Positions 55,507-64,000 of a stretch of 64,000 nucleotides of DNA are shown here, piece after piece. The notes under the pieces are model-generated. The model worked only from the letters and a program-made list of their open reading frames with translations, did no database searches and was not told the origin of the DNA. The position numbers and the translations under genes are program-made. This DNA is from Candidatus Aenigmatarchaeota archaeon (GTDB lineage: Archaea; Aenigmatarchaeota; Aenigmatarchaeia; CG10238-14; SCSR01): contig JAVZHQ010000001.1 of NCBI GenBank assembly GCA_038998335.1, positions 352,001-416,000 on the forward strand. The letters are read 5' to 3'. Within the stretch, counting starts at the first letter, position 1. Each line of letters begins with the position of its first letter.

Positions 55507-55583
55507 CTCATGGGCATGGCGTTGGACTTTGACTCTACCGACTTAACGGCAGGATGAAAAGTTCTATTCCTGCTCATGAGATA
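55507..55583 (+). ncRNA. H/ACA guide RNA (K-turn) in 16S leader targeting U966-equivalent
   Basis: Stem 55507-16/55571-80, pockets TGGCGTT and TATTCC pair around 56629, TTGA/ATGA K-turn, ATA box 16 nt from pocket top. Confidence 0.75.
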
Positions 55584-55646: not shown

Positions 55647-57193
<1,547 letters not shown>

Positions 57194-57309: not shown

Positions 57310-57765
57310 TTAAATTCGATCTTGATCTTTAAGGAACTCTAAGGTTTGGAGAAGTAATTCTTCAAAACGATAAAGAGCTTTTTTGTTTCCAAAAATTTCT
57401 ATAATACCAAAATTTGTAGGAAAGTCTCTTAACTTCCACATCTCATAAGGATAAGGGAATAATCTGTCAACGAGATTTTTTTCTTGTAGATAAAAAGCTA
57501 AATCCCTAACAATGCCTTTATCACAGAACTCTAGTTCAAAAATCGTTGGCGAATAATCATCACAACTGTGCACACCTAAACAAACCTTCGAGAATTTTGA
57601 CAGAACTTTTATTTTACTTTCCTTTCTCGCAAAACATTCCAAGTCAACAAAAATAAAATTCCCATTATTATCGTACTTCTTCATCAGTTTTAAGCAATAG
57701 TTTCTCGCATCTCTATCCTTATCTAACCCGAAAAGAATTCCAACATAGTTTTTTACTTCTGTCAT
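57310..57765 (-). CDS. Hypothetical protein
   Basis: 151-aa ATG ORF. Confidence 0.55.
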   Translation of the reverse strand: MTEVKNYVGILFGLDKDRDARNYCLKLMKKYDNNGNFIFVDLECFARKESKIKVLSKFSKVCLGVHSCDDYSPTIFELEFCDKGIVRDLAFYLQEKNLVDRLFPYPYEMWKLRDFPTNFGIIEIFGNKKALYRFEELLLQTLEFLKDQDRI

Positions 57766-57792
57766 CTTGAAAATAAAAATACTTTAAAAGAT

Positions 57793-58599
57793 TTAACTCT
57801 TAACTATTTGACCCAGGAAATAACTAGCTATTTCAAATTTACCAGTTCTTAGGAAACCAGTCGTATGATCTCTCAGCAAATATATAGTTTCCCTAAGCAT
57901 GAGAGTATGCGAAGGAGTAATGTAAGGAATTATGTAATTGTTGTTAAAACCTTGTAAAGAAGCTTTTTCTAAGCATTTCCTTATATCTTCTTTAAAGAAA
58001 TTAAAAGCTAAATCAAAACTTTTGAACCTTGAGTCTAAGCCAGAAATCAAGGCCAAGTTGTTTTTTCTAGCATAATTTATAGCTTCTTTGTTTGCTTTTT
58101 TAAGACCCTTTTTTAATGAAGGAATAGATTCCAAGTAATAGCTTACTTCTATGAAAGGTTTGTGACAAATTTCACCTTTTTCGTAAAGTTTAATTATCTC
58201 GTCTGCTCTTTTACCCAACCCGCAAGGTCCAAACTGGTGCGGAACGACAATAAATCCTTCATCCCTTTCTATGCTCTTGCAAACATCTTCTAAATTTTTT
58301 GGTGAGATCTTGTTTTCCCATCTTTCTGGAGTTAAGCATAAACCCAAAATATGATAATTGTCGAAAGTCAAAAATTCTAAACCAAAAAGCAAGTTTTCTT
58401 TTTTTGCTTTAAGGTAAGATTTGATCTCTTTGAAAGCTTTTATCGGCAAATCGATTTTTTCACACGCAAAAGCTTTATCAGTAAGAATAAGATAATCTAC
58501 TTTGCTTTTTTCAAAATCTTCTGCTAATTTTTTTGAAGTTTTTCCTAGGTTAAGTTTTTCTCCTTCTTTTGTATGGTAATGGATTGTTACTAAAGGCAT
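57793..58599 (-). CDS. Divergent PHP-domain-like protein
   Basis: HYHT, LILTD, GLE, HILG, VPH, GLDS. Confidence 0.6.
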   Translation of the reverse strand: MPLVTIHYHTKEGEKLNLGKTSKKLAEDFEKSKVDYLILTDKAFACEKIDLPIKAFKEIKSYLKAKKENLLFGLEFLTFDNYHILGLCLTPERWENKISPKNLEDVCKSIERDEGFIVVPHQFGPCGLGKRADEIIKLYEKGEICHKPFIEVSYYLESIPSLKKGLKKANKEAINYARKNNLALISGLDSRFKSFDLAFNFFKEDIRKCLEKASLQGFNNNYIIPYITPSHTLMLRETIYLLRDHTTGFLRTGKFEIASYFLGQIVKS

Positions 58600-58654
58600 A
58601 CTTATTTAAATAGCTCTAATCTTCAAATCTATTGCTCAAAAGTAAAGTTTTATT

Positions 58655-59389
58655 CTATGTAATATAAGGTTTGTAATTTTCTCCAAAAGCTCCCATAATC
58701 ATTTTTTTTAATTCTTTCTCGAAGAAGCTCCTACAAGTTTTATAAAATGGATAAAATATTTTATATATACTTTCACTTTTCTTTTCATAATCCACAAACT
58801 TCGCTTTCAGTTTTTCTCTTGTGTACTCGTACAATTCTTTGGTACTGATTGTTTGAATTTCATTACAACCATAAAACTTTCTAAAAGTACATAATTGAGG
58901 GTTGGCAATCCCTTTATCATATTCTTGGATTTTAATTTTTTTACCCCATTCCTTAGAGGAATTTATCAACCCGATTTTATAAGGATTTTCCCGATCCGAC
59001 AACCTACAGATTAAAATGCTTTCGCTTAGTTCTTTTCCTGGTACAGGCATAATAGAAGCGATAAGAAAATAATCACAAAAATATTGAATTCCTTTTATCT
59101 TTTCTTCGTCCAGGAAAGTTGAAGAATTGTGAAGGATTTTTCTTACCGGTGCCCCTGGACCCTCGACTATAGAATGATTCAAGAGAGACGGCCTTGAATA
59201 TAATAAAGTGAGAAAACTTAAACCGATTAAATGACCTGTAAGGGGTTCTTGTACTTCTTTATCTCTTCTGAAAAGTTCAAACATAAAAATGTCCAAAACC
59301 TGTACTCCATTTAAACCAGTTTTTTCTTTGGCTTCCTCAAGAGTTGATTGAAATTCTGCCCACATTGCTTCCTCTTCTTGGATATCCAT
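58655..59389 (-). CDS. Hypothetical protein
   Basis: 244-aa ATG ORF. Confidence 0.55.
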   Translation of the reverse strand: MDIQEEEAMWAEFQSTLEEAKEKTGLNGVQVLDIFMFELFRRDKEVQEPLTGHLIGLSFLTLLYSRPSLLNHSIVEGPGAPVRKILHNSSTFLDEEKIKGIQYFCDYFLIASIMPVPGKELSESILICRLSDRENPYKIGLINSSKEWGKKIKIQEYDKGIANPQLCTFRKFYGCNEIQTISTKELYEYTREKLKAKFVDYEKKSESIYKIFYPFYKTCRSFFEKELKKMIMGAFGENYKPYIT

Positions 59390-60514: not shown

Positions 60515-60576
60515 GGTTGATGACTTGACTGACAGCGTCTGATAAAAGATGAAGAACGAACTGTCTTTATGAAACC
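60515..60576 (+). ncRNA. Box C/D sRNA B in 23S leader
   Basis: GGTT/AACC stem, C TGATGA, D' CTGA, C' ATGAAGA, D ATGA; both guides antisense to the peptidyl transferase centre (PTC). Confidence 0.85.
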
Positions 60577-62618
60577 AGAAGATGAAACTACCATAGGATA
60601 AGCTGGTCAAGAGGTCCTGGCAACAGTAGCCCACTTGGTGGATGGCTCGGCTTGGTTAGCCGAAGAAGGCCGTGCCAAGCTGCGATAAGCCTGGGTTATC
60701 CGCATGGAGGAGCTGACCCCAGGATTGCCGAATGGGATTCCTAGCCCGTTAAGGGCTATTTCGGAAGAAAAGGGAACGCGCCGAAGTGAAGCATCTTAGT
60801 AGGCGCAGGAAAAGAAATCAAACGAGATTCGGTGAGTAGGGGCGACCGAAAGCCGAACAGGACAAACCGAACTTTCTTTCGAAGAGGAAGAAAGGATGTG
60901 GAGTTACAGGACTTGGGCCTTTCCTAGCTTGCTAACCTGAAGTGAGCTGGAAAGCTCCACCATAGAGGGTGATAGTCCCGTAGGGGAAGGCAAGAAGGAA
61001 AATGCCAAGTCTCCTGAGTACCATTCCTTGGATATGGAGTGGGAATTTGGGTGGCATTAACATCCAATCCTAAATACTAACCAAGTCCGATAGCGGACTA
61101 GTATCGTGAGAGAAAGCTGAAAAGTACCGCGAAAGCGGGGTGAAAAGAGCCTGAAACCAAGTTGGGCATAGTCAGCTAGGGCATGAAAGGTGCTACTCCG
61201 AAGGAAATTCTCGCAAGAGAAGAGTACGAGGAGTAGCTTACAGTGTCCTAGCATCCGTTCTGAAAAACGGGGCAGGGAGTTTGCTCGAGTAGTGAGGTTA
61301 AGGGGTTTAAACCTCGAAGCCAAAGCGAAAGCGACAAGCCCGTAGTCTCGCAAGAGACGTGGGGCGGGGTGTGAAAGCGCCTGAAATTACTCGAGCAAGA
61401 CCCGAAGCCGGTCGATCTAATCCTGGGCAGGATGAAGTTCCTCGAAAGAGGAATGGAGGTCCGAACCGGTGCTGAGACCCAATCGCTCGGTTGACCCAGG
61501 ATTAGGGGTGAAAAGCCAATCGAGACCGGTGATAGCTGGTTCCTCCCGAAATGAGCGTCAGCTCAGCCTGGTTGGAGGTAAGCAGTAGGGTAAAGAGACT
61601 GATTGGACGGTCAAGGTGCGAAAGCATCAGCCGTCCTGTCAAACTCTGAATCTACTGCTGCCTGAGAAGACCGGAGTGAGGGTACTGGGTTAAGCTCGGT
61701 ACCCAAAAGGGGAACAACCCAACCTGGGGTTAAGATCCCTAAATGCCGGCTAAACGAAGAAGGGAGTCCAAATCCTTAGACAGCGGGGCTGTAGGCTTAG
61801 AAGCAGCCATCAGTTAAAAAGTGCGTAACAGCTTACCCGCCGAGGGTTTGGGCCCTGAAAATGGAAGGGACTAAGCCGGCTGTCGATACCCCAGACCTGC
61901 GAAAGCAGGGGGTAGGGAGGCGTTCTGCATGGGTAGAAGCTTGTTCGTGAGAACAAGTGGACCGTGCAGAATTGAAGATCCTGCCATGAGTAGCAGCATA
62001 GCTGGGTGAAAATCCCAGCCGCCTGAACCCTCAGGGTTTGCCAGCAATGTTCGTCAGCTGGCAGTTAGTCGATCCTAAGGGCGCTCTTAACCGAAGCGCT
62101 CAAAAGGGAAATCGGTTAATATTCCGATACCATGGAGGTACGTGCGGCAACGCAAGCTAGCTTTCCGACGTTTCGGGATAGGCCGACGCAAGTTAACTGC
62201 CGAAGCCTGCAGAGTCTCGTAACGAGGAGAAGCAGGTGAAAGCAGGAATAGCTCCGCGTATGCGGAGTTCGGCCGATTCCTGGAACCCGTGAAAAGGGAA
62301 GCTAGAAGGATCCTCCATGATCGTACCAAGAACCGACACAGGTAGGGTCGCTGAGAAGGCGAAGGCGTGTTGGGAGAACCCAATCCAGGGAAATCGGCAA
62401 ATTGGCCCCGTATCTTCGGTAGAAGGGGTGCCTGTTCTCTCGAAAGGGAGAACAGGTCGCAGTGACAAGGGGGAAGCGACTGTTTAACAAAAACACAGGA
62501 GACTGCTAGTCCGAAAGGATTTGTACAGTCTCTGAGGTCTGCCCAGTGCCGGTGTGTGAAACCCGGTTCCAACCGGGAGAAGCCCCGGCAAACGGCGGCG
62601 GTAACTCTGACCGTCGTA

Positions 62619-62664
62619 ACTCAGGGCGGTCATCTGATTTGATGATACGCCGCCTGGGCGACAT
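62619..62664 (+). other. 23S BHB intron (46 nt) at about 1927 with D'/C' K-loop
   Basis: GTCG-TA|A ... CGAC-AT|A. Confidence 0.9.
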
Positions 62665-62792
62665 AAGTAGCGTAATCCCTTGCCGTTTAATTGACGGCCC
62701 GTTCAACGGCTTAACGACTTCCCCACTGTCCTGGGTTGGGACCCAGCGAAAATGCTGTTCTGGTGAATAGGCCAGAGACCTCCGGTGGGAAA

Positions 62793-62823
<31 letters not shown>

Positions 62824-62976
62824 GCGTTGCTGTAAGGTTGAAATTGCATAGAGTAGCTGGGACTCGCTATTAGGCGCAGGCTTCGGCCGAGGCTGAGAGG
62901 AAAGTGTAACACCAGCCCTTTTCAACCTTACGGCTTACCCGTAAGGGGACAGCGTCAGATGGGCAGTTCGGCTGGG

Positions 62977-63060
62977 AGTTTAGGAGCTAGAATGAAGAGT
63001 CCCTTAAGTTATGAAAAAATGATTAAGGGCATACGGTCTGAACAGCTCCTAAACCAGCAA
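62977..63060 (+). other. 23S BHB intron (84 nt) in P-loop (2252/2253) encoding a full box C/D sRNA
   Basis: GCTG-GG|A ... CAGC-AA|G; removal restores GGCTGGGGCGG. Confidence 0.93.
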
Positions 63061-63115
63061 GCGGTACGCCCTTGGTAAGAGATCAAGGGCGCCCAAAGCT
63101 CAGCTCATCCGGGTC

Positions 63116-63212
63116 ATGTCAGAAGTTGAAGCTATGATTACACTGCTCCAGAATGATTTAAAGATGAGTATGGAGGTAGCTTATGAGCTTTCATCAACTT
63201 CTGACACCCGAA
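63116..63212 (+). other. 23S BHB intron (97 nt) at about 2306 encoding a full box C/D sRNA
   Basis: CGGG-TC|A ... CCCG-AA|A; removal restores CCGGGTCAGAAATCCGG. Confidence 0.92.
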
Positions 63213-63384
63213 AGAAATCCGGAGTAGAGTGTAAGCGCAAAAGCTGGGTTGATTGGATCCCGCAAAGCGAGGGATCCAAGGGCGAAAGCCTGGGCTAGCG
63301 ATACATCGGTTCGCCTTAATGGCGGCCGGTGGTATCAGAAAAGCTACCTCGGGGATAATGGGCCCGTGGCCGGTGAAAGCCCAC

Positions 63385-63427
63385 AGCTCAGGGGTTTTCA
63401 TCCCACTCGATAGCGACGAGCGGGTAA
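63385..63427 (+). other. 23S BHB intron (43 nt) at about 2477
   Basis: GCCC-AC|A ... GGGT-AA|A; removal restores AGCCCACATTGAC. Confidence 0.88.
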
Positions 63428-63526
63428 ATTGACCCGGCGCGTTGGTGCGTCGCTGTCGGCTCCCCCCCTCCTGGCCGTGCAGTAGCGGCCAAGGGTACAG
63501 GTGCCCACTGGTTAAAGGGGGACGTT

Positions 63527-63560
<34 letters not shown>

Positions 63561-64000
63561 GCTATCTACCGGAGGTGCTGGCTGTCTGACCGGAAGGATG
63601 GGTGAGTACGAAAGGAACACCCATCCGTGGCCTCTGGTCTACCGGTTGTTCATCGCACAGCCGGGCAGCTAAGCCATAGCGGATAAGTCCTGAAGGCATC
63701 TAAGGACGAAACCGCCCGGGAAAATAGGCAGCCAATTGCTCTGCTATTCCGCAAGGAACGGTAGAGCAACGAGGGCTCTCCTAGACGAGGAGGTTGATAG
63801 GAAGGGGGTGTACGCGCCAAGCTTTCGAGCGAGGCGTTCAGCCCGCCTTTCCTAATCGCCCGAGGTTGCCAGGACTTGATAAGCAGCTTATCCTATGGTA
63901 GTTTCAAAAGTTTTTTTCTAAAATAAAAAAGTTAAACTTTTTTTTCTTAATTTAATTTGTGAAGATTGAAGTGTACATAAGAAATAGAGAAGTTGAAATT

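Follow-up and report, generated by a model that had tools for sequence, protein, structure and literature searches.

Archaeal rRNA introns are usually viewed as selfish remnants of homing-endonuclease elements, and the box C/D guide RNAs of archaea are usually viewed as small free-standing genes. Small non-coding BHB introns were reportedly described by Jay and Inskeep in 2015 from the 16S and 23S rRNA genes of Thermoproteales; we know of no guide-RNA cargo in these introns. The intron analyzed here, in the P-loop of a 23S rRNA gene, resembles them in its BHB motif, in its highly conserved functional site, and in having a LAGLIDADG intron at a neighboring site in a relative. The latter (L014, in the 23S gene of genome G025) is a 662-nt P-loop intron with a LAGLIDADG-type ORF, located two bases downstream of the site of our intron. 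Eukaryotic intronic box C/D snoRNAs offer a second parallel, as promoterless guides that derive from introns of host genes serving translation. However, they reside in spliceosomal introns of Pol II transcripts and are released exonucleolytically, whereas the P-loop intron would be cut out by an endonuclease and lies in rRNA itself. Tang et al. are said to have identified, in 2002, a stable L7Ae-binding RNA from a spliced 16S leader; that RNA would be related to the leader sRNA described below, not to the P-loop intron.

A box C/D RNA in the pre-tRNA-Trp intron was reportedly described by Clouet d'Orval et al. in 2001 and by Singh et al. in 2004. In the available portions of two later papers, the pre-tRNA-Trp intron of Haloferax volcanii and other Euryarchaeota is a box C/D RNA that acts on its own host (PMC7994747, PMC7714728). 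There, as we propose for the P-loop intron, the body of a BHB intron is a dual-guide box C/D RNA that is freed by the tRNA splicing endonuclease. The host in that case is a tRNA and the targets, C34 and U39, lie in its own exons; the P-loop intron instead has 23S rRNA as its host, splits the P-loop, and has both of its predicted targets in 16S rRNA, which is most likely transcribed separately. Its boxes, 12-nt spacers, and adherence to the N+5 rule are features shared with the free-standing dual-guide sRNAs of Pyrococcus, Sulfolobus, Pyrobaculum, and Nanoarchaeum, insofar as the accessible sections of the relevant sources describe them (PMC4644070, PMC6009581, PMC7994747), as are rRNA targets in functional regions. 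From the same partial sources, Neq sR15 and sR17 also direct two guides to distant 16S sites (PMC4644070), and free-standing sRNA genes are intergenic, next to tRNAs, or beside ORFs, whereas the P-loop guide is inside an rRNA intron. The excerpted text of a 2021 review gives tRNA introns, tRNA-linked positions, and intergenic positions as contexts of C/D sRNA genes and does not name rRNA introns (PMC7994747). A full-text literature search returned no report of a C/D sRNA in an rRNA intron, in part a weak negative, since some of the phrase matching on 'C/D box' was uncertain; within that search, the arrangement was found reported in archaea only for tRNA introns.

The P-loop intron and its splicing

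The window, as we refer to the whole 64,000-nucleotide stretch analyzed here, belongs to a 1.0-Mb genome (nine contigs, 33% G+C), and public records with an identical intron are assigned to Candidatus Aenigmatarchaeota from hot-spring samples. Rfam models place an archaeal 16S rRNA gene at 55647-57193 and an archaeal 23S rRNA gene at 60614-63875, both on the plus strand, as are the window features described below unless stated otherwise. In domain V, immediately past GGCUGGG at 62976, the Rfam alignment of the 23S gene has 86 nt against 2 in the model, and the same alignment shows a further insertion approximately 55 nt downstream. The first insertion contains an 84-nt intron (62977-63060), which we take to lie between E. 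coli G2252 and G2253; this 23S numbering was assumed rather than aligned. The position of the insertion thus bears out the proposal, made in an earlier sequence-only reading of this DNA, that an intron splits the P-loop between these two nucleotides.

The intron ends are embedded in a canonical BHB motif. Its 5' half (62971-62977) comprises a helix strand, GCUG (62971-62974), and a 3-nt bulge, GG|A (62975-62977), that holds the 5' splice site; the 3' half (63055-63061) comprises the partner strand, CAGC (63055-63058), and a second bulge, AA|G (63059-63061), that holds the 3' splice site. The 4-bp helix between the bulges is bordered on the intron side by an 11-bp terminal helix (62978-62988 paired with 63044-63054), and a short outer helix of exon bases, found by sequence inspection, completes the motif. 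An MFE fold of the intron recovers the succession of helix, 3-nt bulge, 4-bp helix, 3-nt bulge, and helix (z = -2.9; 3 of 200 shuffles equally stable), and the columns of both BHB halves are invariant in all nine intron variants considered below. Excision at the bulges restores the P-loop, hence the placement of the intron between G2252 and G2253, and the model alignment likewise indicates that excision restores conserved rRNA.

Splicing at these positions is observed in RNA. In contigs from two metatranscriptome runs of one study (X7 and X12, available as contigs), matches to the 5' exon proceed without difference to 62976, stop there, and continue with the letters of 63061 onward; conversely, RNA contigs whose match starts at 63061 carry, immediately before it, the letters up to 62976. 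Contigs assembled from DNA (X1 and X2) read through the intron uninterrupted. Because the RNA contigs are joined and the DNA contigs unspliced, we conclude that the 62976/63061 exon junction is made in RNA as predicted. No contig of X7 or X12 extends over 62997-63050 or over 63132-63212; these are ordinary libraries and are uninformative on the stability of the excised RNA.

The genome encodes most of the machinery that such an intron would call upon. A profile search identified adjacent genes for fibrillarin and Nop5 as well as a gene for L7Ae, all above the Pfam cut-off, and the splicing endonuclease EndA (95 bits). A match to the RtcB ligase was also obtained (547 bits), but it contains two TAA codons in frame. 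Both of these codons fall in an 18-nt in-frame insert (G000:C1:120826-120843) within a conserved glycine-rich motif near the N-terminus of RtcB. The insert may represent a mini-intron of the mRNA, or else a defect; by eye, no BHB is evident around it.

The interval separating the 16S and 23S genes is occupied by three minus-strand ORFs (57310-59389) and tRNA-Ala. With opposite-strand ORFs and a tRNA gene between them, the two rRNAs are most likely separate transcripts, and describing the 16S gene as unlinked to the 23S gene, as had been done previously, is fair. No separate promoter for the intronic guide is evident.

Box C/D architecture, predicted 16S targets, and conservation

Enclosed by the terminal helix, the intron contains in succession a C box (AUGAAGA, 62992-62998), a 12-nt D' spacer (62999-63010), a D' box (AUGA, 63011-63014), an AAAA loop (63015-63018), a C' box (AUGAUUA, 63019-63025), a 12-nt D spacer (63026-63037), and a D box (CUGA, 63038-63041). 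All four boxes occupy the coordinates given to them by the sequence-only reading. The C and D boxes are closed by the 11-bp helix, as befits a terminal C/D motif, and box bases that depart from the consensus compensate one another: U6 of the C' box faces A1 of the D' box, and A5 of the C box faces U2 of the D box. At the gathering score, Rfam assigns no C/D family to the intron. Among its sub-threshold matches, six of eight are CD-box families, and the best of these (sno_ZL63, sR12, sR5, and snoZ266) score 13-19 bits where 38-50 are required. When a strict regular expression for dual-guide C/D RNAs was applied to both strands of the 1.0-Mb genome, it matched at two places only, namely this intron and the next 23S intron. 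A looser expression matches at six places, three of which match rRNA over at least 9 nt, all within the pre-23S transcript; on the reversed genome it matches at three places, none with such an rRNA match. The naked intron RNA is predicted by its MFE fold to prefer an internal hairpin, CCCUUAAG/UUAAGGG, that masks part of both guides and the C' box.

Within the D' spacer, 63000-63010 form a putative guide that matches 16S 56571-56581 at 11 of 11 positions; within the D spacer, 63027-63036 match 16S 56863-56872 at 10 of 10. Outside the intron, each complement occurs only once in the window. The fifth paired nucleotide upstream of each box (N+5) is 56575 for the D' guide and 56866 for the D guide, so that 2'-O-methylation is predicted at these two uridines, which a gapless comparison with E. 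coli rrs aligns to E. coli 912 and 1203. Duplexes and N+5 positions are thus precisely those that had been proposed from the letters alone. When each spacer was shuffled 1500 times and compared with 16S and 23S rRNA, counting contiguous Watson-Crick pairs that include N+5, at least 11 pairs were reached by 5 of 1500 shuffles and at least 10 pairs by 15 of 1500, giving joint odds of approximately 3 in 100,000 (a product that assumes independence). One detail of the original proposal requires correction: the G at 56578 that the D' guide accommodates is indeed present, but it is not atypical, since 20 of 21 site-1 sequences from relatives have it. The D' guide therefore fits the 16S rRNA of its own lineage.

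A further pairing noted previously, of the D guide with its own 3' exon, was also recovered, with 63025-63034 pairing with 63064-63073 at 9 of 10 positions. It is interrupted two positions from N+5, and a rough hand estimate puts its chance probability at approximately 0.02; the 'retargeting' that had been read into this weak pairing is inference only. We also considered whether the intron is equivalent to N. equitans sR15, whose targets (930 and 1217) resemble the local 16S numbering of our sites (929 and 1220). We regard this as a coincidence of numbering and reject the equivalence because the paper, in the portion available, puts the sR15 targets in helix 30, while the sites here correspond to E. 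coli 912 and 1203. Pca sR56, for which the same partial source lists U894 as target, might be a guide for these exact sites (PMC4644070).

Homologous introns provide a test of the guides. A search with the 23S stretch across 41 genomes yielded matches in 25, three of which carry the intron (G000, G001, and G015). A guide-plus-D' pattern was found in 7 of 118 genomes of the order, compared with two matches in a reversed control; five of the seven are P-loop introns, and the remaining two (G012 and G109) lie outside rRNA and are boxless. So that the guides themselves played no part in the selection, public collections of genomes and metagenomes were searched with an exon-anchored pattern consisting only of exons and intron ends, which gave four and eight loci, respectively. 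Together with five fetched earlier these make 17 loci, of which 16 matched extraction and collapsed to nine distinct sequences; L077, which contains N, was excluded from the intron alignment.

Across the nine variants, the columns of the guide duplexes are nearly invariant (0 of 11 variable for D' and 2 of 10 for D, or 2 of 21 in total), whereas variation is seen in 20 of the 33 columns of stem, linker, and loop and in all six of the D'-C' loop. The variants are related sequences, so the significance of this difference is only indicative. Conservation of the guides spans three genera and several metagenomes. The sequence-only reading had named as its refutation a set of homologues that conserved only the internal CCCUUAA/UUAAGGG pairing; the nine introns instead keep their complementarity to 16S rRNA also outside that pairing, while stem and loop diverge. 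Some changes extend the duplexes: in G095 and L084, the first base of the D' spacer is U in place of G, which makes the duplex with 16S 12/12, and in G001 a change from A to G at 63026 lengthens the D-guide match to 11. In the metagenome variant L079, a change from C to U adjoins N+5, and the contig that carries it has no 16S gene; for G015, the 16S gene is missing from the assembly. The 16S targets are identical to those in the window at both sites in G001 and G095 and at site 2 in G097. As the targets are invariant in the four intron-bearing genomes in which they can be read, what we observe is conservation of the guides and no true guide-target covariation.

The scaffold that surrounds the guides is maintained as a structure. 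As written, its pairs form in 96.7% of alignment cells, with six pairs changing on both sides; for the inner helix (12 counted pairs, columns 12-23 with 79-90) the corresponding figures are 98.1% and five. Displacing the partners by 1-3 columns lowers pairing to 22-47% of cells. Both spacers are 12 nt long and the D' box is AUGA in all nine variants. The C' box is AUGAUUA in six of nine and GUGAUUA in three; D' and C' boxes are separated by 3-6 variable nucleotides, and the pair between C' U6 and D' A1 is retained in nine of nine, consistent with an internal k-loop. At the terminal motif, C boxes of homologues include AUGAGGA and AUGUAGA, and the D box is CUGA in six variants, CUAA in two, and CCGA in one. 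The pair between C-box position 5 and D-box position 2 is A-U in seven variants, G-C in one, and G-U in one, and that between C-box position 6 and D-box position 1 is G-C in all nine. AUGUAGA is the C box of G001 and CUAA that of the D box in G015 and L080; both deviate from the consensus where the second G.A pair of the k-turn would form. L7Ae binding tolerates A at the 2n position of a k-turn, according to the part of the source available to us (PMC3985660).

Other introns and predicted guide RNAs of the lineage

The U1203 guide also occurs in a second kind of host. A pattern in which the U1203 guide stands between a C-type and a D-type box was found in 5 of 118 genomes, with no match in the control. 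New among the five are G025 and G034, of family f2, in which the same 12-nt spacer, except for its edge bases, stands before D' with its register kept. The host in this family is a tRNA intron, and the intron mode of ARAGORN identifies tRNA-Arg(CCU) with a 58-nt intron in G034. Both loci (L086, G025:C5; L087, G034:C17) have the appearance of box C/D sRNAs in tRNA introns. Another tRNA scan reported no tRNA at either; ARAGORN in intron mode calls both, the L086 call being doubtful. The other guide of these two sRNAs can pair, over 10 positions with G-U pairs allowed, with the opposite (5') strand region of the same 16S helix, as judged against the 16S rRNA of G000. The presence of the U1203 guide in two different BHB introns is difficult to account for unless selection acts on the guide as a unit.

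The insertion downstream of the P-loop corresponds to a second 23S intron of 97 nt, placed at 63117-63213 to within one base, which is spliced in the RNA contigs and has the features of a dual-guide C/D sRNA: C box at 63134-63140, D' at 63153-63156, C' at 63164-63170, and D at 63183-63186. Its D guide matches 23S 63341-63350 at 10 of 10 positions, with N+5 at 63345. Its D' guide forms 10 contiguous pairs (8 Watson-Crick and 2 G-U) with the spliced P-loop, placing N+5 on 62975, the equivalent of G2251. Because the splice junction of the first intron lies within this duplex, the duplex can form only after that intron has been spliced out. An alternative partner for the D' guide is its own 3' exon, with 8 Watson-Crick pairs, 1 G-U pair, and 1 mismatch; the spliced P-loop is preferred. 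The second intron occurs widely across the order: relatives have at least 17 distinct short variants of it, and by eye the D' guides of these variants differ mostly by C/U changes opposite G.

Two more predicted box C/D sRNAs are associated with stable RNA genes of this genome. One lies in the 5' leader of the 23S transcript (60517-60572), just upstream of a processing stem in which 60583-60603 pairs with 63884-63904. The D guide of this leader sRNA has a 10-11-nt match to 23S rRNA around 63550, and its boxes and D guide are conserved in seven related loci. The other has canonical boxes and resides in a 53-nt tRNA intron on the minus strand (G000:C1:504696-504833), with the layout TGAGGA-12-CTGA-ATAA-TGATGA-10-CTGA; its D' guide matches 23S rRNA three bases from the D target of the second intron. 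In the 5' leader of the 16S gene (55542-55579), two 12-mers each precede ATGA and match 16S and 23S rRNA over 10 and 11 nt, N+5 included, with no clear C box.

Several 16S genes of the lineage are themselves interrupted. In the window, a 76-nt intron (56382-56457) occupies the GAUUAGAUACCC site, where the Rfam alignment has 80 nt against 1 in the model; it carries a k-loop-like element, CUGA-UAAAAG-AUGAAGA, on a stem without a terminal C/D pair. Introns of 85-88 nt are present at E. coli 1197|1198 in the 16S genes of G021, G011, G024, G095, and G097 (L059, L056, L053, L075, and L074, respectively), a site that precedes the U1203 guide duplex by two bases. All of them bear a D'/C'-like k-loop at the apex of an extended stem that covaries, and these look like L7Ae-binding introns without guides. 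Further introns lie in or beside the U912 duplex, at approximately E. coli 907 and at 917-919, in the 16S genes of G095 (L075), G032 (L052), and G038 (L049). In G095, the pre-spliced and spliced forms of the 16S sequence both match the guide at 12 of 12 positions.

A proposed mechanism, its competitors, and what it would mean

We interpret the body of the P-loop intron as a complete dual-guide box C/D sRNA that directs methylation of 16S U912 and U1203, and we put the probability of this reading at roughly 75%; there are no methylation data and no data on the excised RNA. On the strength of the BHB motif and the spliced junction in RNA, the splicing endonuclease is taken to cut at both 3-nt bulges, after which a ligase would join the exons and restore the P-loop. 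The excised intron would probably be circularized, by analogy with other archaeal introns. L7Ae, whose gene is present, is inferred to bind at two places, the k-turn of the terminal C/D motif and the k-loop of the internal C'/D' motif; Nop5 and fibrillarin, also encoded, would complete the RNP. The 12-nt spacers would then act in trans, forming duplexes with 16S rRNA made from a separate transcript and specifying ribose methylation at U912 and U1203, as inferred from the complementarity, register, and conservation of the guides. Since the guide is located in a 23S intron, each 23S transcript would deliver one copy of a guide for 16S rRNA. That maturation of 16S rRNA is thereby coupled to splicing of 23S rRNA, as had been suggested from the sequence, is inference only.

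The main rival to this reading is that the intron binds L7Ae or an RNP and pairs with 16S rRNA, with its 3' exon, or with both, in a chaperone or assembly role, or that only one guide is active, so that methylation is lacking at one or both sites. The introns of relatives' 16S genes that have a k-loop on a covarying stem and no guide are what make L7Ae binding without methylation the foremost competitor. The pattern of box conservation is compatible with it as well: deviations are concentrated at the terminal k-turn (G001, G015, and L080), whereas the C'/D' motif is almost unchanged (D' fixed and C' variable in a single column), and the guides persist even where the D box is CUAA. The 9-of-10 pairing of the D guide with the 3' exon could serve such a role, and Dennis et al. 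(2015), in the sections at hand, propose roles of this type for dual guides to distant 16S sites (PMC4644070). Nevertheless, both duplexes hold the exact register, with N+5 inside a perfect helix, the spacers have the 12-nt length of catalytically active archaeal guides, and the tRNA-intron copy of family f2 retains the register too. We therefore consider an intron that acts without methylating both sites unlikely, albeit not to be dismissed.

Still less probable, in our assessment, is an intron without present function, either a trapped former guide in decay or a mobile mini-intron whose antisense segments mark insertion hot spots in 16S rRNA. Both 16S target regions are such hot spots in relatives, some boxes are degenerate, and the distribution of the intron is patchy (3 of 25 matched 23S genes of relatives; 5 of 118 genomes of the order). 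The guides, however, are far better conserved than the stem and loop. We also followed the mobile-element version and rejected it: the introns at the 16S hot spots are unrelated, having LAGLIDADG ORFs or k-loop hairpins, and apart from the two boxless matches outside rRNA the guide-plus-box pattern is confined to P-loop introns and never found inside 16S genes. Finally, the idea of an ordinary hairpin intron that came by UGA-rich motifs and two rRNA-complementary stretches by chance can practically be set aside, for although UGA-type motifs are common in so AT-rich a genome and NTGA preceded by a 10-nt rRNA complement occurs at approximately 340 places in it (319 in the reversed genome), the joint shuffle odds, the restriction of the full arrangement to 23S introns, the pattern of conservation, and the same guide in another family's tRNA intron all speak against it.

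The reading of the intron as a methylation guide makes concrete predictions: two methylated uridines in 16S rRNA, an 84-nt RNP that is probably circular, and splicing that precedes methylation of G2251. Beyond this single locus, we tentatively suggest, as a broader hypothesis that may well not hold, that BHB-processed parts of stable RNAs are the main platform for guides in this lineage, that guide modules move between tRNA and rRNA introns, that the P-loop intron is kept for its 16S guide, whose supply it sets 1:1 with 23S rRNA, and that splicing orders the pairing at G2251. If the interpretation of the P-loop intron itself is correct, an rRNA intron at an essential site has a cellular job, which would supply a simple reason for its persistence in the P-loop and constitute, within a reduced DPANN genome, an archaeal parallel to eukaryotic intronic snoRNAs. 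Production of the two ribosomal subunits would then be linked even though 16S and 23S rRNA are transcribed apart.
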